A program made the translations under genes and the position numbers. Source: Moniliella sp. 'wahieum' (lineage: Eukaryota). From it: a stretch of 64,000 bases of DNA. The notes under the pieces are model-generated. The model made no database searches, was not told the origin of the DNA, and saw only the letters and a list, made by a program, of their open reading frames with translations. The number at the start of each line of letters is the position of its first letter. The first letter of the stretch is position 1. The stretch is taken from assembly GCA_003971905.1 (NCBI GenBank), contig RSEE01000034.1, forward strand, positions 434,001 through 498,000, in the 5' to 3' direction. Shown here in pieces: positions 6,385 to 64,000 of this stretch.

Positions 6385-8195
6385 ATGTCTGAAGCTGCTG
6401 CTGCTGCTGCTGCTGCCTCTGCCCCTGCTCTGCACCTTGACCCCGTTACGGGCGAGAAGGTGAGCAAGAGTGAGCTCAAGCGCCGCCAGAAGGAGCGCCA
6501 GGCCGCCGAGAAGAAGGCGGCCAAGGCGGCTGCCGCGCCCGCGACTGCCGCCAAGTCCAAGTCGGCCGCCGATGAGGAAGGCGAGCTGAGCCCGCAGCAG
6601 TACTACGAGCACCGTTCGCGTACCATCAAGGCTCTTCGCGAAAGCAAGGCGCCCAACCCGTACCCTCACAAGTTCCATGTGAGCACGTCGCTGGGTGCGT
6701 TCATTGACAAGTACGGCCCCCACCACCGAACCTGGTGCCAAGTTGGACGAGAAGGTGTCCATTGCCGGCCGCATTCACACGGTGCGTGCGCAGGGTGCCA
6801 AGTTGCACTTACTACGATCTCCATTCGGAGGGTCAGAAGGTCCAGATCATGGCCTCGGCCTCGGACCATGTTGGCAAGGAGGGCACCCCGAGGGCTACGC
6901 TGAGATCCATGGGCTCCTCCGCCGCGGTGACATTGTGGGTGTCGAGGGCTACCCGGGCAAGACCAAGAAGGGCGAGCTGTCCATCTTCCCCACCTCGATC
7001 ACCCTCCTCTCGCCCAACCTGCACCGTCTGCCTGGCAAGGCCTTCACCACCGCCGATGGCGAGGTCAAGGGTGGGCTGACGAACCCCGAGACGCGGTACC
7101 GCAAGCGCTACTTGGACTTGATGATCAACCCCAACGTGCGCGAGATCTTTATCAAGCGCGCCAAGATCATCAACTACGTTCGTCGCTTCTTTGAGAACCT
7201 GGGTTTCCTCGAGGTGGAGACGCCGATGATGAACATGGTGGCCGGCGGTGCGACGGCCAAGCCGTTCATCACGCATCACAACGACCTCGGCATGGACCTG
7301 TTTATGCGCATTGCGCCCGAGTTGTACCTCAAGGAGCTTGTGGTGGGAGGGTTGGACCGGGTGTTTGAGATTGGCAAGGTGTTCCGCAACGAGTCGATTG
7401 ACCAGACGCACAACCCCGAGTTTACCAGCTGTGAGTTTTACATGGCGTATGCCGACATGTATGATTTGATGGACATTACCGAGAAGATGATCTCGGGCTT
7501 GGTCAAGTACGTGACGGGCGGGACCAAGGTCACCTACCACCCCGAGGGCAAGGACAAGCCCGATGGCCCGGTGTACGAGATTGACTTTGCGACGCCGTGG
7601 AAGCGGTTCGATATGATCAAGGAGCTCGAAGCGCAGCTCAAGGTCACTTTCCCGCCTGCCGACCAGCTTCACACGGAGGCCACGCGCCAGTGGCTGGACG
7701 ATTTGGCGGTCAAGCACGGGGTGGAGTGCAGCGCGCCGCGCACGTCGGCCCGGTTGGTGGACAAGTTGTGGGCGAGTACATTGAGCCGCAGTGCATCAAC
7801 CCTTCCTTCATCATGGGCCATCCGGAGGTGATGAGCCCGCTGGCCAAGTACCACCGCTCCATCCCCGGTCTGTCGGAACGCTTTGAGTTGTTTGTGGCGA
7901 CCAAGGAGATTGCCAATGCCTACACGGAGCTCAACGATCCCTTTGACCAGCGCGAGCGGTTCGAGGAGCAGTCGCGCCAGGCCGCCGCGGGGACGACGAG
8001 GCGCAAGGCATCGACGAGGTGTTTGTCGATGCGCTGGAACACGGCTTGCCGCCCACGGCTGGCTGGGGGCTCGGCATTGACCGCCTCACCATGTTCCTCA
8101 CCGACTCGAACCGGATTGCCGAGGTGCTCGCCTTCCCGGCGATGAAGCCCGAGCAGACGCAAGCGACGGCGGCTGCTGCGCCTGCGACGGCATGA
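6385..8195 (+). CDS. KRS1: Lysyl-tRNA synthetase (class II)
   Basis: PYPHKF OB fold, [39 protein letters not shown] and [13 protein letters not shown] motifs; several 1-nt indels. Confidence 0.96.
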
Positions 8196-20052: not shown

Positions 20053-21669
20053 ATGTCCACAACAACCCTTACCCTTCCGCCTACCGAGCACATCCCGCTC
20101 ACCCCTCTCCCCTTCGCGGCAAGCAAATCTAATACGTCGTCTCCCGAGGTCATCTTACCCCCCAGTGCTGCTAAACCAATTCCGGAACCAAACCAACAAC
20201 CCCAGGCGGGATCTGAATCTGCTCCTGCCCAAACGTCATCAAACATGTAAGTGCACGGGGCAAGGACCAAGTTTGCTGGAAATCCTCTTGTTCGGGCGTC
20301 TTGCTTGCGCGGATGCTGACGAGGGACCTTCTTTTGACGGGCTTGACTATGCTGGTGGTGGGGACGGTGGCAGTACTGGTGTCGTTGTGTGCATCTCCTC
20401 GTTTCTTGTGATTTTTCTGTCATGTGGCGTGGTCTTCTCCTTTGGTGTGTATCAGGAACTGTACCAGCAACTGGCCACCGAGCCGGACAATCCGTTTACT
20501 GGCCAGCAGCCTGCCGTGATTGATTTGATCGGGACTGCGTCTGCCGGGCTTCAGACACTACTTGCACCTCTCGCTACCGCCTGGAGCAAACGGTTTTCCC
20601 CCCGGATCGTCATATCTACCGGTGGCTTGCTTTTGGCCTTGGCAGGTGTTTTGGCCAGCTATTCGCACACACTGTGGCAAGTTGTTCTCACCCAAGGTGT
20701 TCTCATGGGCTTTGCGACCTGTCTCAGCTACATTACTGCGGTCACTGTGGCCCCGACGCACTATGGCAAACGCCGCGCTCTTGCCATGGGCATCATCACG
20801 GCCGGAACGGGGGTGGGGGGCGTGATGTGGGGTCCTGTGATTCAAAAGTTGAACACCAATCTCGGGTTCCGAAACTCGCTTCGCATTTCGGGCGCCGTGT
20901 GTGGAGTGACGGTAATGTTGTGTGGGCAAGCGCTGGACTGGGACCCGGCTTCCAAAGTTCGGTTTGCAGCGGAAAAACGGGCATTGGCAGGAACGGCGCG
21001 TCGGTCGTTCTCCTTTCTCCCCTCGGTGGATTGGCGGATTGCCGAGACGCCAAGGTTTGCCGCCTCGGCGTTGGGGCCGGTCTGCAAGCAGCAGTATACT
21101 ATGCCCCGATCTTTTACTTTTCGGCGTATGCGCGCACTCTGGGCTATGGCCAGGCGGCGGGTGCCAACCTGATTGCGCTCTCGAACGCGTGCAATGCAGT
21201 AGGAAAGATTGGAATTGGGTTGTTGGCCGATGGCGTGTGTGGTCGGATCAATGCGCTGCTGTTGTCGACGGCAGTGAGTGCGGCGGCAACGTTGGCGCTA
21301 TGGTTGCCGTCGGCGCTAGCTGGCAGCCGGGCGGCGTTTGTCGCGTATGTGGTCATCTATGGTCTGACGGCAAGCGCCTATGTCAGTCTCTTTCCTGCCT
21401 CTCTCGTCGAACTCTTTGGCCCAGCCCACTTTCGCAACGTCAATGGCGTCCTGTATGCCATCCGGGGCATGGCCGCACTCGTCGGTACCCCCACCGCGGG
21501 CGCCTTGATCGCGCGGCTACGATGCCTCGGACCCCGGTCGCAACCCCCCTCAGGCCTACTGGATCACCATCACCTTTGCTGGAGTCCTCTTACCGCTGCA
21601 ACCGCGGGCGTCGCTTGGGTCCGCGTCGAAGCGGGCAGGACGGCCGGCAAGAAAAAGTGGAAGTTGTGA
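20053..21669 (+). CDS. MFS transporter, monocarboxylate (MCT/MCH) family
   Basis: GVVFSFGVYQE, YGKRRALAMGIITAGTGVGG and GLLADGVCGRIN motifs with multiple TM segments; GTAAGT donor at 20247; indels present. Confidence 0.88.
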
Positions 21670-25658: not shown

Positions 25659-26907
25659 ATGTCTGGCCATCTCAATGCTCCTCGCCGGCCTGAGGACGAG
25701 TACGTGGCGCCTACGCCGCAGAACACTCCTCTCCAAAATCAACCGTTGACGCGCGAAGCGCTCAGCCGCCCCACTGTCGGGACCGTGGCCGAAGAGGATG
25801 AGGAGGCGGCAGCGGCCAATGCACCGAACGAAGAAGCTGCAGCAGCCTTGGCGGGGAACCCTGCCCTTGCCGCATTGTTGGGAGCCCGTCTTGGTCGCTT
25901 GACCGATCATACTCCCAGTGTGTTGGATCAACTGCCTGACTACATACGCCGCCGCGCCCTCGCTCTCGAAGGCCTGCAAGCTCAGCACCTTGGAGTCGAG
26001 TCCGAGTTCCAGAAGGAGTTAATGGAGATTGAGCGCAAGTTTCAAGCCAAGTATGAGCCGCTCTATCAGCAGCGTAAAGCCATTATCTTGGGCAAGGTTG
26101 AGCCCACGGCCGAACTTGTCGAAGAAGGCGAGAAGGCGAAGGCTGAACGTGCTGAATCATCTCCTACTGAAAAGGAACCGGTCAAGAATTTGGCACAAGT
26201 CAAAGCCCCGGACGGACGGAGAAAAGGGCATTCCCAGCTTTTGGTTTACGGCCCTGCACACTCACACCGGCTTTTCGGACATAATCTCTGACCGCGACGA
26301 GGAAGCGCTGTCCTTTTTGGACGACATTCGCTCTGAGCTGCTCCCGGCAGGGGGTCCGGCAGGATACAAACTAACTTTTGAATTTTCCCCGAACAACACG
26401 TTCTTCAAGAACACGATCTTGACCAAGACGTACTACTACCGTGACGAGGTGGGCGGCAATGGCGACTTGATTTATGACCACGCCGAAGGTTGCTCGATTG
26501 AATGGGTGAGTAGTGAAAAGGACCTGACCACGCGGATCGAGACCAAGAAGCAGCGTAACAAGAACACAAACCAGGTGCGCGTTGTCAAGAGATCCGTTCC
26601 CACCGACTCATTCTTCAACTTCTTTTCTCTCCCACGCCCCTTCAGGAGACGAGGACTCGGACGACGAGGTGGAAGAAATTGAAGAGCGACTTGCGATCGA
26701 CTACCAGCTTGGGGAGGAGATCAAGGAGCGTATGTTCCACACGCCATTCAGTTCTTCACCGGCGAGGCGTTGAACTATGAGGAGTTTGACGATATCAATG
26801 GCTTGGATGACGAAGATGACGATGACGATGACGACGATGATGATGCACCAGTCGCTCAGGGAGCCACGGCCCAGTCGGCAGACCCGCAAGAGTGCCGCCA
26901 GCAGTAG
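25659..26907 (+). CDS. NAP1: Nucleosome assembly protein 1
   Basis: GIPSFW, FFKNTILTKTYYY, IETKKQRNKNT and DSFFNFF motifs, acidic tail, C-terminal ECRQQ (CaaX-like). Confidence 0.95.
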
Positions 26908-30315: not shown

Positions 30316-31764
30316 ATGTCACGCGCCCCGTTCCTGGCCATCCGTCGGGGGGTAACTCCCACGTCCCACAACACCCTGCATCTTCCCAGCCGCAATCGTC
30401 CGTGGCGGAGATCCCGGGCCGCCGCGTCGATCCCAACACGCAGCAGGATCTCCAACAGCATGTGGCCGCCATGCTGGGACGTCGAACAATCAGCTTTCCT
30501 GGGGCGCAGCCAGTGTCATTCATGCAAAGTGATGTGCGCCGGCTGATTGACCAGGACTTTTGGGTGTGCGAAAAATCGGATGGGCAACGCGTGTTGGCAT
30601 ACATTGTGTGGTCCCCACACGTCAAGCGCCAGTTCGTCTACCTTATTGACCGCAAGAACAACTACTATCAGATCGATGGGGTACATTTTCCCTCTATCGA
30701 GGGACCTGTGTACGAAACGCTGATTGATGGTGAACTGCTCTGGGATACGCGTAAGAGCGGACGCCGGATCTTGCGCTTGCTCCGTTTGACGCCCTCGTCA
30801 TCAATGGGCAACCTGTGCATCACAGATCTTCTTCGAGCGGTACCGTGCGTTGAAGAAGGCTGTGTGCGATCCCTTTGCCAATTTCATGCGAAAACGCCCC
30901 CAAGCTGTATCACGCTTCCCATTCGAGGTATTGATCAAGCACATGGATAGCTCCTACCATCTGGAGTATGTCCTAAAGCAAACATCCAAGCTCGAACACG
31001 CAAGTGATGGTCTTATTTTCACACGTCTGAACACCCCTTACCGCTTTGGTACGGACAACGACATTCTCAAATGGAAACCGGCGGAGGAGAACTCGATTGA
31101 CTTCAAACTTCGACTGCGATTTCCTCCGCTACGCTCTCACGGGGGCGGGCCAAGCGAGGCTGATTTTCAGGCCAAGCCTTTTTTTCAGTTGGATATGTAC
31201 TCCGGGCGTGGTGCCGCGGCGGCAGATCGGACCGGGTACGAATATTTCGACTATGCTGACATGTCAGACGCCGAATGGGAGGAGATGAAAGCGTCGGGCG
31301 AGCAATATGACGATCGGATCGTTGAATGCGCTTGGGAGACCGAGGGGGAGTTGCCGGGCGTCGAGTATCCAAGGTGGGTCATCACCCGCATCCGCGCGGA
31401 CAAGCAAGATGGCAACCATGTAACCGTGGTGAACAGCGTCATCCGATCCATCACGGACGGAGTAACGCTTCAGCAGGTAAGCAATCTCTCCAACCCTTTT
31501 CGTACCAAATTCTTACAGATTTTGCTACTCCAGTTACAGGAAGCGGTACCCGCCATGCGCGAAGCGTGGAAGTCATCCGCGCGGGAAGATGCTCGCAAAA
31601 GGCAAGTCCCTGGATCGGCATCTCAAACGCTGCACACTCAAGCTGCCCCTGGTGTGCCTGGCGGAATGATTTCTTCCTCTTTCCCTGGCCCCATCCCACT
31701 CCCATCAAAACCTGGCCTAGGCCCACCAATGCCACTGGGTGGGCCCGCTCATCTGGTGCGGTGA
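30316..31764 (+). CDS. CEG1: mRNA capping enzyme alpha subunit (guanylyltransferase)
   Basis: [16 protein letters not shown] (KxDG), DGEL, DGLIF, LKWKP and RADK..GNH motifs; indels and a probable 3' intron at 31476. Confidence 0.93.
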
Positions 31765-43193: not shown

Positions 43194-44989
43194 ATGCCCC
43201 CATCCGCCCTTCTCGGCCCCTCCCTCCGCCGCTCCTTCGTCCGCTCCGTCGCCACCATGTCTGCTCCCTCGACGGTATCGTCCTTGGTGTCTCCCCGGAC
43301 GGCAACTTCCCCGCTGCCGCCGCTGCCCACGCCGACGCTGTGGCCCAGGCCAAGACTGCCTGGGCCCCCAGCCGCGCCGATGCAACCAAGTTTGGCCAGG
43401 TGCGCGTCACCTACCCGGACGCTGAACTTGCCGTGGCCAGCGTCAGCCTTGGTGCCTCCCAGCCGGCGCCGACGACCGGACCCGATGCCCTCCCCGCGGT
43501 GCCCATCTACCTTCGCAACGAGCGCCTGGAGCGCACCCGCCGGGCTGTAGCCAAGGGCGCCAAGGCCCTTCGCGACATTGGCCCTCCGCCCAGCGCGGCC
43601 AAGCCCGAGGCGGAGGGTGACAAGCCTGCTGCCCCGGTCCCCCGCACCTTTGCCATTGACACGATGGACTCGGCCCACGCGGCTGCTGTCGGAGCCAATC
43701 TGAGCCTGTTCAAGTTCAACAACTACAAGACGCTGGGGGCCAGGGCAAGGGTACTTTTGGTCTGCCTGCTTCGCAGCAGGCTGGCCGTGAGTTTAGCTTT
43801 GTTCCTCTGCCGGGTGCCAAGACGGTGGATGAGGGGGATGAGCTTAAGGACCTCATTGCGGCCCACAGCATCCCCCAGCTGAGCTGGAAAACGGGTGAGG
43901 TGTACTCGCAGGCTCAGAACTGGGCCCGTGAGCTCAAGGAAACCCCGGCCAAGTACGTTTGCCATGTTTTAATGTGTGTGCGACTGCTGACTTTTGATCT
44001 GCTAGTGAGTTGAACCCTACCATTTTCGCCAAGAAGATTGTCGACGCGTTCAAGGGTCTGCCCAACACTCAGGTCAATGTCTACGACGAGGACTGGGCCC
44101 GTGAGAAGGGGATGAACGTGTTCCTCTCGGTCACCCAGGGCACAGCACAGCCTGCCAAGTTTGTCGAGATCATCTACAATGGCGCCACTGCGTCGGATGC
44201 GCCCAAGCTTGGCTTTGTCGGCAAGGGTGTCTGCTTTGACTCTGGTGGAATCTCGATCAAGGGAGGTGCCGGGATGAAGTTGATGCGGGCTGACATGGGT
44301 GGTGCCGCGGCGGTGGTGAGCACGGTCAAGGCAATTGCTGAGCTGCAGCTCCCCATCAACGTGGTCGCTGCCACGCCTTTGGTCGAGAACCTTCCCGGTG
44401 GCAAGGCTACCAAGCCTGGTGACATCTTCAAGGCCATGAATGGTCTTACTGTCGAGGTGGACAACACTGACGCCGAGGGGCGCCTGATCCTCTCGGACGC
44501 TCTGACCTACGTCAGCCGGGAGCACAAGCCGCACACGCTGTTTGACGTTGCGACCCTGACTGGGGCCATCCTGCACGCGCTGGGCACCCATTACACGGGT
44601 ACCTTTACGGAATCGGACTCGCTTTGGCAAGAGCTCAAGGCGGCTGGGAGGGGAGGCGGAGAGCGACCTGTTTTGGCGGATGCCCCTCGACGACCAGTAC
44701 TTCCACAGCATTGACTCGTCCAATGCCGACCTGTGCAACACGGGCAGGCCCGCTGGCTCGGCCACCGCCGCCATTTTCCTCAAGCAGTTTGTTGATGGCC
44801 TCGAGGACCGCTCCAAACTCGAAAAGGGCGAGGGTCACACCTACGGTTCGCTGGGCCCACTTGGACATTGCCGGCGCGATGGAATGCACCTGGGGCAACG
44901 ACTACCAAGCCAAGGGCGCAATGACTGGCCGCCCCACTCGCGCTCTTATTGAGTTTGCCCGCCGCTTTGCGGTTCTCCACCACAAGTAG
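43194..44989 (+). CDS. Leucine aminopeptidase (M17 family)
   Basis: [40 protein letters not shown] and WAHLDIAG motifs; intron at about 43953-44004. Confidence 0.94.
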
Positions 44990-48090: not shown

Positions 48091-50955
48091 TTAAACCTCG
48101 TTGTACTTTTGAGCCGTGGGCAAGTCATGGGACGTGTGGTACGACACACCCGAACCCATCACCCGAGGCATGTCGTGTCGCCGCCCCGGGGCCGGAGTGA
48201 TGTGGAACGAGCGCCGCCGGTGGGGGTGGGTGAGGGGATCATCTTCCTCCCCTGCCGATTCATGCAAGGTGGCCGGGACATCGGGCTCGATCAGTGCCGC
48301 CTCACTCGGCCTGCCCACGTCGGAGAGCGAACGACGTTGGGCCTCGGCTAGCTCGGCAGCTTCACGGGCAGCCAGCGCGCGCTCCCGCTCGCTCCGGCCT
48401 TCCTCTCCCCTGCGACGACGACGCCGGCGGGGCAGCGTGATGAATTTGGGCATGACCCGTACGTCCAGGTCTAGCGCAACATTCGTCGCCGCTTGCAGGG
48501 CTTCAATCCACGCCACCACATGCGCCTGATCGCAGCACTGGATCAGGAACTGTTCGCCACCCAGACGAACGCGCACCACATTTTTCCGCTTAATGTAGTC
48601 GGCCGCCAAACCCGATTCGGCGCGTTGGAGCGAGTAGGTTTTGCTCAAGTTGGCCCCATACGGGTCCGGCCCTGAAGCGTAGGTGTTGATATAGGTGCCA
48701 TGCTGGATCGAAGCTAGCATCGCGTCCGGTGCGTCTGTCATGGCCTTGCGTTGCGCCTCGGTTCCCAACCCGGCATGCTCCGACGTGCCGTCCGATCCGG
48801 GATTTGGGCCGCCGCCCAGATGGCCAATAGCGACGTGAGAATGACGCTGGAACGCGCCACGGGCCGAGTGGGCGGCATGGGACGCTGTTGCCGCCACACC
48901 CGATGTGGCCGTCGAGTTGGATGCCGAGCTTTCATTTTCATTGATCGGGTCGGAATGGACGTGGGTGCCAGCCATGGGTTGGAAGGCGGCGATGGCGACT
49001 GCACGAGGAACCAAGGCGCTCATGTCGCCCTTGTAGACTTTGAGGAAGGTACCATGTAGGACAAAGTAGTACCTCCGCCAACTCCGATCGCGCGACTGGA
49101 CCCCTGGCGCCGAAAATTCCATCTTGCGCGCCAGGTAGCCTTCAATGTGCACCCCCGTTACGTATTGCGGTAGCGGCTCCTGCCCTTCCTCTTCCCGAGG
49201 GAGAATGTGCTGGCTGTGGAACACGTCGGATGAGTAGCTAGGTGGAGCTGCGTCCAGGGCCGACATGGACTTGCGTCCAGATTTGGGCGATCCGGCCCCC
49301 GTTCTGCCTCACCCCCCCCAGACGAAACAGGCTGGGGCATAGTGTGCACCCCTTCGTCCTCTGGTGAGGTGGCATGCGAGCTGCCCCCAGTGGTACTGTT
49401 GCCGCGCAACGAATCGCCCGTGGTCTGAACCGAGTCCCCACTGGAGATCGAGGCGGTTTGGCTCGTCGGTTCAGGCCGAACCAAGGCGCTCCTCCTCACC
49501 CCACCCGCTGCTTCAGCTCGTGTTGCTGCCGTTGCACTGCCACGTGCATTCGGCTGCAAATAGAACTCACCCATGGAGCGCGACAGGCCCGGTCGCAGAG
49601 TCCCATGAGGGTTTGGGGGGGCAGGAGGGTTGGAAATCAGGCCCGAGGGAACGGTAACAGGCGACTCGGGCGCCGAGACAGTTGGTAATCGAACAGACTC
49701 GGGGGCATGTGCAGGCACAGGTGCCGGCGCCGATACAGGGACCGGCAACGCAACTTGTCCCATTTCTCGAGATGGCGTAGGGGTGAGAGAGAGCGCAGCA
49801 GAAATGGCCGAACCACGGCGGGATGTGGGCGCAGCGTGGAGACCAGGGGCCAGTTGGCGCGAAGGCACAGGTTGGATGGGAGCAAACCCACCGCCTAGCG
49901 AGGCCAATGCCGAAGCCATTTGCTGTCGACGTACTTCAGCGGGGACCTGTTGCGCACTATCGTCCGGTGTTCGCAGCCGACGCGACACGGTGATCAGGGG
50001 GGGGAAGGGGGTGGCTCGTGGCCGGTAGGCGCACTGCCGCTTTTGGCCAGGGCACGCGAGGCAGCCGGCCCATGCCCTGTACTGGCAATAGGCACGAGGG
50101 AGAAATAATCTGCCTCAGATCCGGCGGTGGGCGGTGCAGCGGAAGCGACAACACTCGTTCGGCGCGATCCGGGTGCACCAGGCGGTTGGGAGGTGAAGCG
50201 GACCCAGTTCACCCGCCCCACCCGCACCTCTTTGCCATAGATCGCCAAGCCAGCCGAGTCGGGATTGGAGGGCCGAGTGCCCATATGCAAAGAGGCGTTG
50301 GCCAAGGTTGGCGTGGTGGGGACAGGACTTGGATGATGGTAAAAGTAGTAGAACGCACCGGTTCTGTAGAGGGGGGACTGGGGAGATTAGGGGCGGACTC
50401 GTCGTCAGAGGAGCTGTCGGACGAATCTGTCAACTCTTGCGACTCGATAGAGGCACGATGCCCATCGTGGTCGGATCCTGACAGACGACCGAACGATGGA
50501 TCGAAGTTGATTTGAGGGAGTTGATGGAGCGGATCGCGCCGGCTTCTGGGGGGGGGCGATTTACCAGGTCATAAGAAGGCCGGGCAGCACAGGGAGGCGA
50601 GGGGGGTCCTGAATGTGGAGGGTAGAGGGAAAGAGGAGGCACAGTCAGTAGATACGCGTGACAGGGAAGAGTGGGACGGAGGATGGGCAGGCGTACGGAG
50701 ATGATGGGTGAGATGAAAATGGGCGTTATGCTGCTCACCAACTAGACTTGGTTTGCGGCGGTCAGACGGGATGGGAGGAGGCGGAGGGGGGGATGGGGAT
50801 TTGGACAAGTGGGGCGCACGGGTACGGCGAAAGGCGCTGGAGATGCGGGGGGACAGGCGGATGTCGACACTGCGGCGGATGGGGAGGGAGAAGGGCTGCT
50901 GGAAGGGAGTGGAAGACGGTGGGGGCGGGGCTGGGGCTGAGGGAGGAATGGTCAT
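48091..50955 (-). CDS. PH-domain protein (YHR131C/YNL144C-like) with long disordered N-terminus
   Basis: LPREEEGQEPLPQY, EGYLARKMEF, RSWRRYYFVLHGT, YSLQRAESGLAADYIKRKNVVRVR..EQFL and WIEALQA motifs; N-terminal part broken by indels. Confidence 0.8.
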
Positions 50956-51455
50956 CGCCGTCGCCGTCGGGGGGAGGAGCGGTGGAGGCGCGAGTGAGGG
51001 CGCAGGAAGCTGAGCGACGGCATAAGAGCCTCAGATGCAGCTGGACGGCAGGAGCAGGACCCAGAGTGGAGGGAGGGAGATGGAGATGGAGGTGGGAGAG
51101 AGGAGAGGAGACGAAGGGGGTGAAGATGTGGGTATGGGAGGCTCAGCGAGCAGGGGCCGGCGCAGGGCCCGTTGTGGCAGCAGGGCACAGCACATGCTAC
51201 GTCCACAGAGTATTGACTTAGCCTGACGCCTGAATATGGAATTCAATGCTTGAATATGCAATTCAACGCTGGGTGTGAACGCGTGATGTGTGACGGGAAA
51301 AGCTGCAGGCCACCAGAATGGTCGGCGCGGCACACTGCTCTTGCGCCTGATGCACGATGTACACTGGCCTGAGGCGGGAGGTCTGGTGCCACGTGAGCGC
51401 GTGAGCGAGGTACCTCGGTATCTGGCGAGCGCCAGGAGGCCGAGGGCCAGAAAGG

Positions 51456-51479
51456 TCACCGGTCACCGGTCACCGGTCA
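51456..51479. repeat. (TCA CCGG)x3 TCA array
   Basis: Read directly; upstream of the PH-domain gene. Confidence 0.92.
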
Positions 51480-52141
51480 CCACTTATGAAACTGCATGGG
51501 TGACTGTCGCAGATTACAGGCTTTTCCAGGCCGCAGACGCCACGCCAGGTAGGCTGCAGCGCGCACGGGGCAGCACGCAGGCCAGCGCTGCTGGGCCTGC
51601 AGCACAGACACAACTGGGGTGGAGGGTGTAGGCTTGGGGCACCCGGGGAGCTAGAGAGGCGGCAGCCATTCGACAGTCCATTAGGCAGGAGGCTGGCGCG
51701 CTTGAAGCTTGAAGCTTAATCGTGACTCGGACAGACTCTGAATCTAACTCCTCCGGACTGGTACTTTAGGCTAAAGCCTTAGGTCTTGATCTTAGAGAAG
51801 CGTGGGTTCTCAGTCTGAGATCTCTGAGATGATCGATGGTTCGGAGATGGGAGGATCGAGGACTGGAAGACAGTAAGTGATGACATCGATGACATCTTGT
51901 TGCGCTAGTGCAGGCGTCACCTGGTCCCCCAGCACTTTGCAGCCCCTCTCCCGGCCCCTTGTGCGTTCATTCGATGTGCGGCCGTCGATGCCTCGGACCA
52001 TCGACCATCGACCATCGACCACTGACCACCGACCATCGACCCCACCGACCATCGATCATCGATCACTCGATCGCTGGCCATCTGTCGTTGAAACGTTCAA
52101 CTAACATCGATCATTAACATTATGCATTAAGATTCGGCCCA

Positions 52142-54509: not shown

Positions 54510-56873
54510 GATGGGAGAGGAAGCGACGGAAGGAGGAGAAGCGAGGGGCAGGAAGCGAACCAACCAAACGACGGCGCACGATCGAGCTGCAAGCTTCAAG
54601 CGCCCAGCCAAACAGGCCAAACAAGCCAACAAGCCAAACTCAGCCTGGGCCAAAGCAGGCCAAAGCACCGCGGCCCAACGACTGCGCACTCAGCAGCTGA
54701 CGTAACACTGTTGCGCGCGCGCGCCCGCCTCGCCTGAAAGTTGAAATGAAACGATGGGGCACGGGGGCAGTGGACAGCCGCGTGCGGAGGAGGAATGGGT
54801 CTCAGAAATCGCAGTGGTGCGCGTGCGCGTGAGCGATGACGCGGGCGACGGGATCGGGCACGCAAGCACTGTCCCCCCCCGCCGCCGGCTGACTCGGCGC
54901 AGCGCCAGTGGGAATGGGGTCATTTACAACTCAGGAACTCAGTACTCACGCCGCCCCGTCGTGGGGGCGACGGCCAGCGACCACTCGTCGCTCGTCGTTG
55001 CGCGGGCGTTACAACACGCATCCGTCGTCATGCATCCCGATGAATACAGAAGCTTCCCACCACGCGCCACACCACCCACCATCAGGAAATCCCCTCACCT
55101 ACTCCCATTGTTAAGCATGGCCTCGGCCAACGTCGCTTCCGCCTCTTGGTCCCGCCCTTCGTTCCGCGCCTCTGTTCGGCTTCGCTGATCTCTTCTTATA
55201 TCTTCTCTTCAAGCTTCAGGTCCAACGCTATTCTCACTGCCGACATAGTCTCCTGCACAATCCCCACTCCCGTGGCTCCGTGCATCCTGTTGATTTCTTA
55301 TCCAGCCTGTTGAGCCACCGGGTGGCTCGTGCTTTAGCCAACGTCCCTTCAGTTCCTCCTCAGGCCTACTCGGAGTTCCGTTGTCTTCTCTCTCTCCTGC
55401 TTTTCGTTGTTCGACAGCTTAGCCCCTGGTACCGGCTTGCTGCTTACCTTGAAGCTTGATGTTCCTCTGTAGGCATTGCTGGCTGGCTTAGTTCAGCACC
55501 ACTACCATCAGTGCAATTGCATCACACCCTCGACGACCATCTGGACTCCAGTCTCATCAGAGTTGCAACTCTTCTTCGCTCATCCACTGAGCAACGGTGA
55601 TCGACCTGCACTTCCCATTCCCATCGCCTCACACTACCTATGCCCAACCACCTCCTTCGGCGTATTTCATCAACAATGACGCCATTCCACTTCCTACCCC
55701 TCACCTTTCGGAACCGGACTAGGCCGACCAACACCTTCCGTCTCCTTTTCCTATTAAAGAAGGTATTACCTTCGAACATGCCTCGCAGCTGGTGAAAGAA
55801 CAACTTAGCCAATACCAGATCCTTTACCATATTCTTGAGGGTCACAAACCTCTGTTGGTGGCCAAGAAGGGCCATGAGTCTGTGATTGTCAAGGCCATCT
55901 CACCCATATTTCAGGCCAACTCTCATCTCTCGAGCAAATGATCGTGAAAATGATCGGCGATCCTGCTAGGCGGATTCCCAGCGATCCGTCTTCCCAGACG
56001 ACTGTCGTGCGCCACTACGGCGAGCTGCGTAACGTGTTCCACCGTACTTTGGTGCATTTTTGCGAACCGTGTTGGTTCTCCGCTTCTTCCCATCAGCAAC
56101 CTTCCGCAACATCCAAACCGGTGGATCCTGTCCTACGTCCACGACCAATCGAGTCACCAGTGCCTCACGATGAACCGCTTATTGATATTCCTGTGGCGAC
56201 AAAGACATCACCTCCTGCACCCCCAGTTGGTGGAGATATGATGTCTTCATTGGCTATGCTCAGTTGGTCTTGTCTATGGAACGCCTCATGGATGTGGCTG
56301 AGAAACCTTTAGCGACAGCTCGACCCCACTGGCATTGCCCTTCCTGTATTCTCTTGCATGCCACCAGTCTTACTTTTCACACTGAGTGGGGGGATCGTTC
56401 ATTCCCCTCTTCCCTTGGATCTGTAACCTTTAACTTCACCACCCCATTGGCTTCCTGGGGTATCATCCGCGTCATCCCAAGGCAACATTCACAGCCTGTA
56501 TAGCACCAGCACGATGCGCTTTTCATACCGCACCCAGCCAAGAAGACATGAAGCTGGGGTTGTCCCCTGGGTCCAAAGTCATTAACAAGGTGCCAGACCA
56601 TCATAATATCCACAACGCAGTGCGACTACGCCATGTCCATACCATCATTATACCATACTATGTTTTGACACGGTAGGGTGAGAGGCTGGTGATGGCAAAT
56701 AGCATGAGGGTGGGAACACGAGGAAATTACTTGAGAAAACAAGGTGAAGCCTCCTCCACCTCCTGTTCCCGCGCACAAAATGAGGAAGACACATATGCAA
56801 ATAGCCCTTTTTAAGTCGCAAACGATGGAGGGGGTAAATTGGGCTAGAAGCTCTAGGCACTTGCAAGACGGAA

Positions 56874-58359
56874 TTACTTCGGGCCGGATGTACTAAGGAG
56901 AGCATGCATGTTGCTGAGGATGCCCAAGGCTTGGCCAGTGCTTGCTGGGTCGGGTTTTCTGGCTGTGCCAGGCCACCATGGCGGGCTTATGGGCCCAAGG
57001 GAAGGGCAAATACTCCTGCAAGTATTCAAACGGACGAGCGTTGCGCGAATTGCGGGGAGGAGCGCAGGACTCGAGCCAAAGAACCCTTGAAGAATGCTTT
57101 GGGCCCTTCTTGAGCCAAAATTTTGCGGAAGCAATCTGCCATGCCATTGTACGTCGCTTGCCCTTTGCGTGCCTCCACTTGCAAGCGCGTCTTGATCACA
57201 TCGGCAGGAGTGGTGAAGAAGGCAGCGGGCATACCGCTGATGGCCGCGGCGGCCAGTGTCTCCCCAAAGCCAAGGCGCTTCCCATTGACACCCTCGTGGA
57301 ATGTATCCTTCTTGAGATGAGCATAGGCTGGGAAATAGATCGCGCTGAACGGGATGTCACGCAGCAGGCAGGCCCCAGCGCCCTTGTACAAGCCCCGCAG
57401 GCCCAGATCACGCACAATCTGCACCGCCCCCTGCTTGACAGAAGCAGCGGCACCTTCGGCCGCCTTGGCCATCTCACCCTGGACCTGCAGACGAATTTTG
57501 ACAATCTCTGCGGGAGGAAAGCACAGTCAGCAACGTGTCAAAAATGAGCGATGAACAACGGTCCAAGAAGCGGACATACCGAGGGGATTGGTAAAGATGA
57601 CTTGACAGCCGCCGGCCGTACCACCAGCAACAAGCTCCCATGGCAATGCAATCGCACCCGTAACGGGGTCCTTGGTCTTGGACCGAATCAGGTCGTTGAC
57701 CGTCAACTTGATCGCCTTTTCAGGCGCAACGCCAATCAGCTGCGGCCCAAGCCCGAGTAAAAGCCCCGAAAGCCCTCGTTCCGGAAGACCTGGCGGACAC
57801 AGTCGATGCTGTTCTTGTACATCGGCGCCTCGCCCACGACTGACGTGCGTTGGTTTTGCATCCGCGTTTTGACCAGATCGATGGGGTACACCAGCGTCGC
57901 GCCCACTGAGCCGGCAATGCCGCCCAGAACAAAGTGATAGATTGAGTGGCCAATGTCGTACAGCAGCGACTGGGCGGACTCCTTAGTCAGGTCATGTGGC
58001 TTAGGTGCATGGTCCTCCACCACCAGTTCGCCCTCGGCGTCGGCCTGGACAACTGGGGGTCCGCTAGAAGCGGTGGGTGCCGGCGCACTGACAAAGTCGT
58101 CGGTGATGGTGAGGTGGTGCACCACATCGCTACCACTCTCTTTAGTAGCGTTGGGGTCCACCGCAAGAGCCTGGTAGGTCAAAATCCCGCTCGGGGCGGT
58201 ACGGGTAAGCTGGCGATAAGCCTCGATTTGTTGGGCCAGCTCGGGAGAGGGCGTGGCAGGAGTGCGAACTGTGGCGCTGACGACAAAGGGGTGCTCGGAG
58301 CCCGCCGGGCCGTCGCAGGCCAGCTGCGGCTGCAGGAAAGGGGGCACGAGGGACGACAT
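56874..58359 (-). CDS. AGC1: Mitochondrial carrier, aspartate/glutamate (AGC1/citrin-like)
   Basis: [53 protein letters not shown] and RSSPQF motifs; intron at about 57579-57508; 3' end uncertain. Confidence 0.88.
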
Positions 58360-58757
58360 GGGCAGGTGGAGGGGGAGGGGGGGGGGCGAGAGCGGAGGGA
58401 ACTCAGGCGGAGGGAGGTGGTGGGGGGGCAAGAACGGCTGTGTGGGCGAAGAGCCGAGGCTAGCAGAGCCAAGCAGAGCGGCGAGGCGTGGCGTCGGCGG
58501 CAAGAACGTTTTACGCCAGGCCGCGGGGGATGGGGCGAGTGTGCTTCCGTGTCGTCTGTTTCACCTCGGCGTGTTGTGCCCGGTTGCGCGCTGCGAGCGC
58601 CGCTTTGTCCGTCTGCCGTAATTCCCCGACCACATGCCTTGCGCTTCGACGCTCCGACTTGTCCCGAGCCACACGGGCGCATCACGCGTCACCCGCGTCA
58701 CCCATGCGACTGCCCCGCCACGCCCGCCTGCGGGCTGCCGTGCTGTCCCAGTGCTCT

Positions 58758-58788
58758 TCACATGTCACATGTCACACGTCACATGTCA
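58758..58788. repeat. TCA CATG TCA CATG TCA CACG TCA CATG TCA array
   Basis: Read directly; upstream of the AGC1-like gene. Confidence 0.92.
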
Positions 58789-59819
58789 CCCTTCACGATC
58801 AATCATCGATCGTCGATCAACCACCCAACCCCCCGACCTCCTAACCTGGTTCTACCACTGAGCGGCTCAGTTACACCTCTTGTAAAGTCGGTGCTGGTTA
58901 GCAAGGCCCCAAATGGGTAGTTCAGACAGAAAAGAAAGTCGCTGAGCTTGGCTCTGTTTCCAGGTGCAAACGTCCAACACACATATATACGGGCCTCTTC
59001 TACTGTACTCCTTTCTATAATTTTTCCTTTTGTCGAAGAGGAATGTTCGAAATAGGCGTCAGCGATGGTCATCGAGCCCTCAACTACATCGAGATATCTC
59101 ATCTTGAGCATTGTGGCAACCGCTCATCGCAGCGACCAGCATATAATGTCCCGCGGCCGGCATTATCGCAGCTATCCTCAGAAAAACTTCCGGTCGGACC
59201 AGGTGGAACCACTCCAGCCAGTGACAGGTGACATGCACAACCGGCGCTCGGGAGAAGATCAGAATGCAACCAAAAGCAAAGGTGATGGACCGGCAATGAG
59301 ACATTTCTCTGAGTAGGACAACTGTTGCAGAGACCGCTACTATACCCTTCAAGAGATTCCCCTCCCCGCCGTCGTCAGCGCTCAGCGCGTTCAGCGCCAG
59401 CACTCCTAATATCACTTGTTGTGCTGCACAACTGTGTTTGAGGCCTGTGAGCCTCAGCCTGAGGCCTGAGGGGTTCGCGGTGCAGAAGGGCACCTTGGCC
59501 GCTTTCTGCTTGCGAACATGTGAATGCAAACATTGATGAGTTGAACATGAATAACAGCGTCGAGAGAGAAAACCAGGCGCGGAAAAACTGGCGCCGCAGG
59601 GCGCGGCTCGCAGGTACCAAGCACCAGGTCAGGTAAAGCCGTTACCTCATCTCAGACAGCAACGCGATCAGGACGAGTCCGGTTCTGCTCCTTTATAAGC
59701 GGTTGGAAATGTGCCCAGTCCGTGCGCCCGAATCTTCTGCGCAGTAGCGGAACGGGGAAGAACGGAAAATACGAGGATACTGCATGTCTGCCGCGCTTTC
59801 CTCCCTTCCTCATGGCACC

Positions 59820-61050
59820 ATCATATTTCTACAACGTCCTCCCACGCCCCTCAAACCGCGCTTCGTACCGCACAGCGCGCTGGCCTGGCCCGCATTGCGT
59901 CTCCTCGTTCAATTCCAGTTGGTCCCGCTCTCAGCACTCTCGTCGCCTGACCACCCGTGCCGCCATGTCTACGCTCACGCGGGATGCGTACCTTGAAGTT
60001 CGTAGATGCAGATGAGAGACGGTGTACGAGCATTCAGATTGTGGCCGACGGAAAAGCTGCAGAGCTACTTCGAGGATGACACCTTTCCTGCCATCGGGTA
60101 CGGTTCGTAGGGCGATGCCCAATCGCTCAATCTGCGCGACAATGGCTTAACCGTCATTGTTGGTGTCCGTGAGGGCGGTCGTTCCTGGAAGGAGCCTCAG
60201 GAGAACGGTTATGTACCCGGAAAGACCCTCTTCCCCATTGAAGAGGCCATAATCAACAAGGGAACGATCATTATGAACCTTCTCTCCAACGCTGCCCAGT
60301 CAGAGCTCTGGCCTACAATTGCCCCCCTCTGATCAAGCCCGGAAAGTACTTTTCGCATGGCTTCTCGGTCATGTTCAAGGATGACACGCATACGCATGTT
60401 GTGGCTCTCAAGGACGTCGACGTGATTCTTTGCGCGCAAGGGTTCAGACCGCACCGTAATACGCAGCCTCTACCTCGAGACAAGGGTATCAACTCGTCAG
60501 GCGCAGTGTGCCAGGACGTGACGGGCAAGGCACTCGAGAAGGCTGTTGCTACCGGCATTGCTGTTGGTTCTGGGTACATTTACGAGACCACATTTGAGAA
60601 AAAGGAGGTGTATTCTGACCTGTATGGTGAGCGTGGTGCGCTCATGGGCGGTATCCAGGGCATGTTCAAGGCTCAGTACGACGTGCTGCGCGAAAACGGA
60701 CCCCCCCCGGAGGCCTTCAACGAAACGGGGAACGAAGCGCTCCAGGGCTGTATCCCCTCGTCGACGAGCACGACATGGACTACATGTCAAGGTTAGTTGC
60801 TCCACCACCGTCCGCCGTGGTGCGCTCGACTGAGCACCTGACTTGGAGAAAGCCACCACCTGTCTTTGAGCGTTTCTACGCCTCGGTCCGCAAGGTTGAC
60901 GAGACGCGTCGCATGCTCCAGTTCGCCTCACGCCCTACTTACCGGGGGAGGATTATATGACAGGGAGAGACTGATGCCATCACTGACCAGAAGATATGGC
61001 GGGTTGGCCACACTGTCCGTGCCCTTCGTCCTGACCACGAGAACAAGTAA
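59820..61050 (+). pseudogene. ILV5: Ketol-acid reductoisomerase pseudogene
   Basis: IGYGS*G..LNLRDNG, YFSHGFS, GINSS, EVYSDLYGERG.LMGGI, CSTT.RRGALD* and IWRVGHTVRALRP; stops at 60108 and 60831, several non-homopolymer indels. Confidence 0.88.
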
Positions 61051-61447
61051 AAGGCGTACCCAATGTAGCCGCCTCCTTCTTCCTGGACCCTCCTTCTTGC
61101 CTTCTTCTACAACGATACGAAACCCCATGAGAGTAAAACAGGTGGTACCCGTCTTCGTTCCATTATAGGTTTCCTCGTTACTAGTCGAACACCGCTGCTT
61201 CATGAGGGGGAACGGGAAACGGGGGGGGAACTTTCGCCATTGGTGGAGCGATGTGTGTAAAACTTGTGTGCGGATGGGGCCAGCTAGAGTGGATGATGCG
61301 TCGGGCACCACGAGCGGGGGCAGGCGGAGGCCAGTGGCTGGGGTGTGTCGGTGATGCAACAGAAGTGGAACATTCAACTTGTGGAGATTGAAGCACGGCT
61401 GCGGGTTTACCCGGTGTTTCTCTCTCGAGGCATAAGTCCCAGGCATT

Positions 61448-61479
61448 TGAAGCTTCAAGCTTGACTTCATCAAGCTTCA
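61448..61479. repeat. TGA AGCT TCA AGCT TGA ... TCA AGCT TCA array (more copies at 61666 and 61694)
   Basis: Read directly from the sequence. Confidence 0.9.
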
Positions 61480-62171
61480 AGTACCCCAAGCGTCTGCGGT
61501 ATGGACCAGCCACAGGTACGCAACAGGTATACGCCAGCTCACCCATAGTCAGCGCCCAGCGACTAGGCGCTCAACGCGCTCAGCCCCAGTGCCCGCCAAC
61601 GCCACCAGCCCACTTGGAGCTTCAGGCTTCAGGGCCTCAGCAGGCCCTGAGGCTTCATGGACTATTGAAGCTTGAAGCGTGAAGCTATTCGCTTGAAGCT
61701 TGACGACCAGAAAATGGAGCTGGGCAGCTGTCGAGGCCGGATGATGGATGATGACGTTGATCCGATGGCTGTCGACCGAGTTGGTTGGGCTGGGTTGGGT
61801 CGGTAGTGCCTTGGTCACGCTGGTCAAGCTGGTCAAGCTGGTCAAGCTGAGCTTCAAGCATCCAGCTGAAGGCTAAAAAGCGAGACATTGGGGCAAGGGG
61901 TGGGTGGCACTCACTAGTCACTGTATTGGACGCCACTGTGCGTGTGGGCGCGCTGGCGCTGCAATGCCGTTGAGCTCACCTGTTGGTGGGTCGATGACCG
62001 GATGGGATGATCGCTGGTCTTGGCCGTCTCCACAGCGTCCGTGGGGTTGCGACGGGTGACGCCGGGGACGGTGAAGCGATGCCCCCGCATCTCCACACTC
62101 CGCCCGCCTTTTTTTGCCCCCAACACCACCACCGCCCAAGCGTCACGCCTGCGTCGGTGCTGGCTCTCGGC

Positions 62172-64000
62172 ATGTCATTGCCGTCCTCCGCCTCCCTCAC
62201 ACCGCGCAGTCCCCCTGTCCTCCCCCACAGCCCCCCGCCCGTGTCTCCCCACCTGGCTTGCTCCTCTGCCGGCATCCCAACACGCCTGCCCCCTCCCGCC
62301 CGCCCCGAGCGCCACTCGCGCCCCTGTTCACCACCATCGCCCTCTTCCGCTTCGACCCAGATTGTTTCTGCCCCTGCCTCTCCCCGCCTCGACTCCCGTC
62401 ATATCCTGCCCGCTCATCTGGGTAACGCCACTGAACGGGTGTCCCCACCACCACTGTTTGGTATCCCCCTTGGAAGCTCCATCACTTGCCCGCCAAGTTT
62501 CGATGTGCGCCTCAATGTCCCCCAAGCCCGTTCATCATCCATGGACATCGAGCTGATGCGTACATCAGTCGAAGCTGGATCTGAGGAACGCTCGTCCATT
62601 GGGGATTCCTTCCGCTCGCCAGACTTTGATAGTAGGATGCGTGGCATTAACCACCCTCCCCCTTCATTCAACATCCCCAGCGACAAAGCGTCTTCTCTTT
62701 CCCGTTCCAGGTCCCTCCCTCAACATGGCCCGCTGTTGCCGATTCCTGGTCTCTTGTCAATGAGAGGGAACGTGTTGAAAGCCCAGCGGGGGGGGTGGAG
62801 AGTAGTTGGGTCACCCCTGCCCTCAATTCTCAATCCTACACGGCCCTCCATGACCATGACTCGGTTCGTTTTCATCTACGCACGTTCTAGGCAGATTGCT
62901 GACGTTGCTTTGCATTCGTACTAGCAGGAGTACGGTATGGATCCCTTCTACTTAACTATCGAGGCAGCAGACGCGAGCTCCTCCCTGCACTCCTGTAACT
63001 CCCGCTCTTCCAGAAAGTCCAGTCGACACTCCGAAGACTCAGAGGATGCACCGAGTGGACAACCCAGTAACGCTTTCCCCCAGTTCCCTCTTCTTCGAAA
63101 CTTGCCTCTGGATCGGTGATGCCGCCCATGGTCGCTCTCACCAGTACTGCACCATCCAGGTCGACCTCATCAGTCACCCCCCCGATGATGTCGAGTCCTC
63201 ACGCAGCGGATCCTGGTACGCAAGCACAGGTCCAGCTACAAGAGCCTGTTGTTGCATACGAAAAGCATAGTGAGGTTGCCACTGACCCTTCTCCCCCTCT
63301 CTCTGCCATTTGGCGGCCACAGGCGATGTCTCGCCTTCGTCAGGGGAGATGGGGGCGAAGGATACGCCTCGTGGTAGTCCCCATTCTCATGACTCCGAAC
63401 AGCATACTCCGCTCGAGCAATTGGGCGATCGGCAATCGGTTGTGCCACAATCAGGTGTCGTGCAGTCGGATGCTTCAACGTCTCCGTATGCGTTTTCACA
63501 GAATTCTCGTGGGGAAGGTATTCCTCCCCCTACTCACATTGTTTCCCCTGACATTTCTGTTCTCGGAAAGGGCCCTCATTTGACTGAGCCAACGCAGTCT
63601 CATAATCCCCTTTCATCAGTCAAGACGGCCGCCTTGTCACCCCTCAACTCCAACTCAAGTGTGGCTCCATCGGGAACTACCGCCTCGTATGCCAACCTCT
63701 CATCCGGAAAGTTGGCTGGCATGACTCATGGTGTTAAGCATTCCCTTTTCTCTCGTCGCCTCCACCCGTCGAAGTCAAACGCTTCGTCCCAACACGACAC
63801 AAGCACACCCAGCACATCCTCCTCTGGTAGAAAGTTTCGCTCCGGGGGTTTCTTACCTTTCCGTCGGTCAAGTGCCCATCAAACGACCACAGAGACTCCC
63901 TCCTCCCCTCCTCTCGACTCGCTTTCCCCTACTACATCAGCCTCGTCTTCACGGCGGAAATCATGGATCAAACCAGCAGATGCACTTTTGCAGTCGCGCA
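62172..64000 (+). CDS. 5' part of a Ser/Pro-rich protein running off the right edge
   Basis: Long ORF from ATG 62172; branch point and acceptor (GCTGAC..TAGCAG) near 62898-62927; continued Ser-rich frames; no domain inside the window. Confidence 0.55.

Follow-up and report, generated by a model that had tools for sequence, protein, structure and literature searches.

The ILV5 locus and its surroundings

The 64-kb window (the whole stretch of DNA that was analysed) is gene-dense nuclear DNA with 53–69% G+C. Pfam scans of 500 stop-to-stop open reading frames (ORFs) of at least 70 aa and of 56 ATG-ORFs found genes for a VDAC porin, CCDC47, a Tim17-family protein, a class II tRNA synthetase, ATG4 (peptidase C54), a metacaspase, an MFS transporter, NAP, ribosomal protein L44, dynactin-5, an L7Ae-family protein, an mRNA capping enzyme, a Cbp3-like chaperone, a CCR4-like nuclease, an M17 aminopeptidase, a PH-domain protein, Svf1 and a mitochondrial carrier, together with fragments of ketol-acid reductoisomerase (KARI). 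KARI is the mitochondrial enzyme Ilv5, which catalyses the second of the steps that valine, isoleucine and leucine synthesis have in common (PMC4302243). The fragments mark a relic of the ILV5 gene, which is listed in Table 1 with its principal lesions and its neighbour, AGC1.

Table 1. Features of the ILV5 locus (positions in the window)
Feature	Position	Strand	Remarks
AGC1, mitochondrial aspartate-glutamate carrier, functional-looking	56874..58359	-	internal control; one 70-nt intron, 5 single-base deletions
Spacer of ~1.5 kb between AGC1 and the relic, which are divergently oriented	58360..59833	.	Pfam and repeat scans
ILV5 relic, former start codon to retained stop, presequence included	59834..61050	+	alignment, tblastn, Pfam
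ACG where initiator ATG is expected	59834..59836	+	aligns with Met1 of P0001
In-frame TGA, presequence	59948..59950	+	same unbroken frame, ...STLVA-stop-PPVPP...RGMRTLKF; absent from the first-pass annotation
In-frame TAG replacing Gln (P0001 Q98)	60108..60110	+	GYGSQG to GYGS-stop-G; probably CAG to TAG
Tandem 6-nt duplication ACGCATACGCAT (ACGCAT twice)	60385..60396	+	adds Thr-His; alignment
In-frame TGA replacing Trp (P0001 W337)	60831..60833	+	GALDW to GALD-stop; probably TGG to TGA
Three +2 insertions, duplicated dinucleotides in GGGGG, TATAT, GAGAG	60946..60969	+	11 nt apart
Original stop TAA	61048..61050	+	retained where P0001 ends; alignment

We aligned the KARI protein P0001 (407 aa) with positions 59750–61100 by a custom dynamic-programming protein-to-DNA alignment in which frameshifts are allowed. 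The relic is collinear with P0001 from Met1 through the last residue, and 320 of the 392 aligned codons are identical. A 163-aa piece (60305–60793) matched P0001 with E=5.8e-56; among the matches listed, the next KARI sequences were those of Tilletiaria anomala (P0002, 73% identity) and Tilletia (~70%). In a MAFFT alignment the relic was 78.9% identical to P0001 and 69.4% identical to Tilletiaria. Frame pieces of the relic scored above the Pfam cut-offs for both domains, KARI_N (PF07991; 36.6 bits, cut-off 20.6) and KARI_C (PF01450; 45.6 bits, cut-off 29.1). The full-length ILV5 homology proposed in a first-pass annotation of this DNA is thus borne out, from start to stop. Searches by tblastn with P0001 and P0002 gave matches confined to 59837–61047, in three frames; 60 kb of sequence upstream of the relic and 3 kb downstream contained no second KARI homology, and no other ILV or LEU genes were found within the window.

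The relic shares with fungal mitochondrial Ilv5 both the KARI_N and KARI_C domains and the collinearity from presequence to stop. Unlike a working Ilv5, it has no start codon, contains three stops and 11 frameshifts, and has replaced 12 of 110 invariant positions. Homology to the domains of a working KARI was therefore found, but not an open frame, a start, an intact GxGxQG or the full set of invariant residues.

Of the named fungi matched, Tilletiaria anomala (Ustilaginomycotina) is the nearest relative. The best match of CCDC47, P0121, is 79% identical to it and P0122 78%, against 51% for the Tilletiaria anomala homologue, and the C-terminal piece of AGC1 is 96% identical to P0147. The spacer between AGC1 and the relic contains no gene, repeat or mobile element recognisable in Pfam and repeat scans. 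Tilletia horrida is the only species common to the ILV5 and AGC1 match lists, and its records for the two genes are on different-sized contigs; an AGC1 of Tilletiaria was absent from the 120 rows listed. G-rich tracts, including G10 and G7, lie at 58363–58385 and 58404–58428, just upstream of the AGC1 start, on the opposite strand; in long-read assemblies, it is tracts of that kind whose length is most often wrong.

A processed pseudogene or an inserted copy was considered and rejected. No A-run follows 61050 and no direct or inverted repeats bracket the relic, so there is no sign of retro-copying or of a mobile element. Missing introns are uninformative on retro-copying, because P0001 is a single 407-aa protein.

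Several minor features were noted around the locus. Downstream of the relic, in a stretch devoid of genes, a palindromic motif of the type TTGAAGCTTCAAGCTT occurs at 61447–61464, 61614–61631 and 61665–61682; palindromes of this type also occur at 55201–55221 and 55448–55461, and may be a shared regulatory element or due to chance. A short tandem repeat, in which a 9-nt unit (TGGTCAAGC) occurs three times with overlap, is found at 61812–61847, and codon-position periodicity is low at 61.9–62.3 kb. The long ORFs further downstream (61998–62921 and 63071–63999, both +) gave no Pfam match. Elsewhere in the window, the interval 50001–52000 has a strong local GC skew of +0.27 and no Pfam-recognisable ORF.

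Lesions of ILV5 compared with assembly noise

Frame breaks are not limited to ILV5. Alignment of AGC1 to P0147 revealed five frameshifts, all of them single-base deletions (57749, 57045, 57031, 56972 and 56943), and no stop; CCDC47 has an intact 401-aa ORF with no frameshift in 1203 nt. Pfam coordinates reveal frame changes without room for an intron in NAP (~26181–26194 and 26636–26640), the capping enzyme (30779–30817), the class II tRNA synthetase (7980–7992), the M17 peptidase (~44650–44666) and the MFS transporter (~21055–21070), and these cases outside AGC1 include +1-type shifts too. The frameshifts of the neighbours are mostly at short G or C runs. We judge several of the affected genes to be indispensable and therefore take the frameshifts to be consensus errors. 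Single-base frame breaks in housekeeping genes are characteristic of unpolished long-read assemblies, on which genes need to be called in a frameshift-aware way.

The same explanation could be extended to ILV5: the gene would be intact in the organism, and every one of its lesions a consensus error of an unpolished long-read assembly. In its favour, housekeeping neighbours (AGC1 with five, NAP, the capping enzyme, the tRNA synthetase and the M17 peptidase) do carry frameshifts that must be errors. We estimated from CCDC47 and AGC1 (five errors in the ~1410 nt of AGC1) a rate of 1.9 per kb, at which ILV5 should have 2.3 frameshifts. The relic has 11 (Poisson p=3.2e-5), and with a rougher rate that adds the cases found from Pfam coordinates (about 9 in about 5.8 kb) the excess is larger still (p=4.8e-6).

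The kind of frameshift differs as well. Seven of the 11 are +2 events (60018, 60041, 60331, 60794, 60947, 60958 and 60969), two are −2 (about 60437 and 60858) and two are −1 (about 60481 and 60747). Only the two −1 events resemble the errors of AGC1, a number in line with the noise prediction, and about two of the ILV5 frameshifts may thus be assembly artefacts. The remaining nine, +2 or −2, are of a kind unseen among the five aligned AGC1 indels. In six of the seven +2 events an adjacent dinucleotide is apparently duplicated (GAGAG, TGTG, CTCT, GGGGG, TATAT and GAGAG; flanks read by eye). Read in one frame, the segment with the last three of these insertions encodes GRII-stop-QGE, versus the expected EDYDKE.

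In addition, the mature part of the relic has six in-frame indels. They include +3 insertions at 60252–60254, 60459–60461 and 60602–60604, a deletion of 6 nt after 60346 and a deletion of 3 nt beside a C8 run at 60701; the codon loss beside this run may be an assembly artefact. Several further codon indels are found in the presequence.

Other lesions are base substitutions, which created the three stops of the relic and removed its ATG. The TAG falls within GYGSQG, which we take to be the GxGxQG dinucleotide-binding motif. No upstream Met is found in the frame of the ACG back to 59702.

The lesions listed in the first-pass annotation are all present in the relic. The two stops it had placed at 60108, inside GYGSQG, and at 60831, instead of the Trp of GALDW, are opposite Q98 and W337 of P0001. 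The micro-duplication it had put near 60387 is the 6-nt tandem at 60385–60396, and the extra codons it had noticed are those of EEAI-I-NK (60252–60254) and FEK-K-E (60602–60604). The missing TL of GKTLYFSHG is the 6-nt loss after 60346. The presequence does lack an ATG, having ACG at the Met1 position and no Met upstream in frame. Of the residue changes it had named, LSDAAQ has become LSNAAQ, and the disrupted APKG proved to be an APKGSG broken by loss of the Pro codon, by the frameshift near 60437 and by a Gly-to-Asp replacement. Its contrast between the lesions of ILV5 and the simpler indels of the neighbours is also upheld, in that AGC1 has single-base deletions only and ILV5 mostly +2 and −2 events.

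As an observation in its own right, the indel spectrum of the relic is unusual for natural or neutral decay: +2 duplications dominate, and 1-nt events are almost absent beyond noise.

Loss of constraint and the history of the relic

We compared the relic with fungal KARI sequences, keeping 101 of the 120 listed matches (375–425 aa; 19 were dropped for length) and entering the relic as a read-through translation with X at each break. In the mature region, 12 of the 110 columns invariant in the 101 sequences are replaced in the relic, and six more are a gap or X. The replacements at invariant columns include R to H, G to D (three times), P to L and E to K. At KARI columns conserved to at least 90% the relic is off consensus at 18 of 109, seven of these 18 being common to P0001, and at variable columns it differs from P0001 at 25 of 114. 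As a control, AGC1 was analysed with 110 fungal sequences of 400–730 aa, drawn, starting from P0147, from 116 after excluding three animal matches. None of its 97 invariant columns is replaced (one is X), and only two of 63 highly conserved columns are changed, both in common with P0147. The difference between 12 of 110 in ILV5 and 0 of 97 in AGC1 is significant (Fisher p=4.5e-4).

Tajima relative rate tests gave the same picture. Relic-unique and P0001-unique changes numbered 46 and 8 with Tilletiaria as outgroup, 39 and 4 with P0003, 42 and 8 with Tilletia horrida, 42 and 5 with Tilletia maclaganii, and 50 and 10 with Malassezia psittaci; the excess on the relic side has p<=1.5e-6 with all five outgroups. 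No window-side excess was seen for AGC1 with six outgroups (9–17 window-unique versus 14–26 relative-unique changes); with two of the six it is the relative, not the window, that is in nominal excess (p=0.02 and 0.004). Nor was there a window-side excess for CCDC47 (15–21 window-unique versus 13–26 relative-unique). Calibration across the genes is approximate, as P0001, P0147 and P0121 need not belong to one and the same relative.

These comparisons bear on whether the lesions could all be consensus errors. The five deletions of AGC1 come without amino-acid damage, its invariant columns being unchanged; ILV5, however, has substitutions that make three stops and remove the ATG, and it combines 12 replaced invariant residues with a 6-nt tandem duplication, codon-sized indels and +2/−2 events. 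The acceleration is confined to ILV5, as compared with AGC1 and CCDC47. We thus regard an ILV5 gene intact in the organism as very improbable, and the locus shows how true gene decay can be distinguished from the indel errors of a noisy long-read assembly.

In a maximum-likelihood tree of 25 of the 102 rows, hand-chosen to span groups, the relic and P0001 are sisters (support 100/99) within a clade to which Tilletiaria also belongs. From this placement the relic would be vertically inherited, neither foreign nor an ancient paralogue. Its terminal branch is 0.33 long and that of P0001 0.0098; taken with the placement, the branch lengths indicate that constraint was lost after the split from the P0001 lineage.

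The spectrum of replacements was examined for a RIP-like process. Single-step replacements could be assigned for 44 positions of the mature part (another eight were ambiguous, four, or multi-step, four), comprising 30 transitions and 14 transversions, with 22 changes from G:C to A:T and 16 from A:T to G:C in mixed contexts. RIP-like mutation was rejected, since only 20 of the 44 are G>A or C>T, alongside 10 A>G or T>C and the 14 transversions, and the contexts are mixed. GC3 is 0.66 in the relic, 0.70 in AGC1 and 0.80 in CCDC47, a difference too small to use.

Taken together, the data strongly indicate, at a probability of about 0.93, that the ILV5 locus is a real pseudogene, a full-length but decayed gene that would be incapable of encoding the enzyme. 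The first-pass annotation had called it a genuine pseudogene, and this judgement stands: the lesions exceed sequencing and assembly error in number and in kind, and the relaxation of constraint is specific to the gene. We propose that ILV5 was intact in the common ancestor with P0001, that selective constraint on it was lost in this lineage, and that the gene would have decayed neutrally since. Decay would have included loss of the start codon, the appearance of three nonsense codons, insertions by tandem duplication, small deletions and replacements at positions that otherwise never vary. Assuming that neutral replacements accumulate ~25 times faster than in a working ILV5, and that each lineage acquired ~8 replacements while the gene was functional, we infer that inactivation would fall within about the most recent fifth of the period that has passed since this lineage and that of P0001 separated.

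Redundancy, loss or a sheltered allele

Whether the decay of ILV5 is an isolated event in this region was assessed by a scan for further relics. None was found among the 500 ORFs of 70 aa or more, nor among 226 ORFs of 45–69 aa outside known genes, a scan that is blind to relics without a Pfam domain or in pieces shorter than 45 aa. The sole Pfam match among the 226 short ORFs was a Got1/Sft2 exon. At the sensitivity of the scan, ILV5 is the sole decayed gene recognisable in the window. The lack of a second relic makes a decaying duplicated block, a hybrid subgenome or genome-wide reduction less likely. The relic is full-length and lies among densely packed genes, as is normal, and neither flanking repeats nor another relic are found near it. 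This anatomy fits death in place and is also compatible with an intact copy elsewhere.

An intact ILV5 elsewhere in the genome would have made this copy dispensable, whether it arose by dispersed duplication or relocation, as a homeologue after hybridisation or as a xenologue, and the fungus would be prototrophic. We give such redundancy even odds. All other named basidiomycetes among the matches listed have kept an intact KARI, and duplication of KARI does occur, as in Auriscalpium vulgare (P0041 and P0082, on a same-sized contig in the records). Within the window, however, a second KARI is missing both from the 60 kb upstream and from the 3 kb downstream; neither flanking repeats nor mobile elements nor a poly(A) tract are present; the two neighbours checked, AGC1 and CCDC47, are both under normal constraint; and the ORF scan speaks against a decaying block or hybrid subgenome. 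Relics of duplicate genes remain in yeasts after duplication or hybridisation. Like the ILV5 relic, they are recognisable dead copies of a normally single-copy housekeeping gene; unlike them, ILV5 has no duplicated block, second relic or tandem partner in its window. Should there be a second copy, this locus would be a dead duplicate of the ordinary kind.

Redundancy could also be allelic. The relic would then be one of two alleles in a diploid, dikaryotic or hybrid organism, and a working allele on the second haplotype would shelter it; this would explain the far-gone decay of an essential gene, but nothing speaks for it directly. Against it, ~40 extra replacements and ~20 indels could have built up only over a long time free of recombination and gene conversion; the two neighbours checked, AGC1 and CCDC47, are not decayed to any similar degree, and the scan recognised no further relic. 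We consider a sheltered null allele improbable. Taken together, the readings in which a working copy persists, elsewhere or on a second haplotype, are somewhat favoured.

Alternatively, the sole ILV5 of the fungus may be gone. Without the Ilv5 step the fungus could not synthesize the three amino acids, nor 2-ketoisovalerate for pantothenate, and would take them from a host or a rich substrate. Such unitary loss would account for a relic that is full-length from start to stop, presequence included, whose divergent orientation to AGC1 and gene-dense surroundings look normal, that bears no signature of a copied or inserted segment, that is the only one recognisable in the window, and whose decay is lineage-specific and fairly recent. 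Against it stands the lack of precedent: a natural branched-chain amino acid (BCAA) auxotroph among Ustilaginomycotina was not found in the literature searched. The same searches, which had subscription journals and supplements outside their scope, yielded no report of a comparable fungal ILV5 pseudogene or of BCAA pathway loss in Ustilaginomycotina; the literature found on KARI pseudogenes or auxotrophs is bacterial or algal.

Experimental work on other fungi bears on this choice in both directions. In a study of Fusarium graminearum, growth and development are reported to be affected when BCAA genes, that of Ilv5 among them, are deleted, and its authors link amino acid malnutrition to pathogenicity (PMC9604659). 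These effects argue against easy natural loss and so weigh against unitary loss and for a second copy. On the other hand, another study, in which BCAA synthesis is discussed as an antifungal target, reports ilv5 to be non-essential for the virulence of Candida albicans in mice, and dispensability of ilv5 in a rich host niche is therefore not implausible (PMC4302243).

Judged from one 64-kb window, a true loss of BCAA synthesis, from which the first-pass annotation had proposed an auxotroph dependent on a host, is a serious possibility, with odds short of even. The corresponding reading, that a Ustilaginomycotina fungus related to Tilletiaria (Georgefischeriales-like) recently lost its sole KARI and would be a natural auxotroph for valine, isoleucine, leucine and the pantothenate precursor, dependent on a host or rich niche, is accordingly offered as tentative. 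The ILV5 relic itself is a solid, slightly unusual pseudogene, which becomes notable only if the whole genome has no other KARI. If this was the only copy, the fungus would show natural BCAA auxotrophy, a rarity in basidiomycetes, and would be a case of early metabolic dependence, with a bearing on its lifestyle and on growth media.

Unitary pseudogenes can create a nutritional requirement, as primate GULO did for vitamin C. GULO is likewise a full-length biosynthetic relic in an ordinary-looking locus under neutral decay; the ILV5 relic differs in that the lack of a working copy and the nutritional requirement are, for this fungus, only possibilities. In Pneumocystis and Microsporidia, amino-acid biosynthesis has been lost along with genome-wide reduction. 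The outcome for these host-dependent fungi would be the same as here if ILV5 was the only copy. Unlike in them, ILV5 is the sole recognisable relic in its window, and AGC1 and CCDC47 are normally constrained; unitary loss of ILV5 would thus be the loss of an amino-acid pathway caught at a stage at which the relic is still readable and the neighbouring genes are otherwise unreduced.
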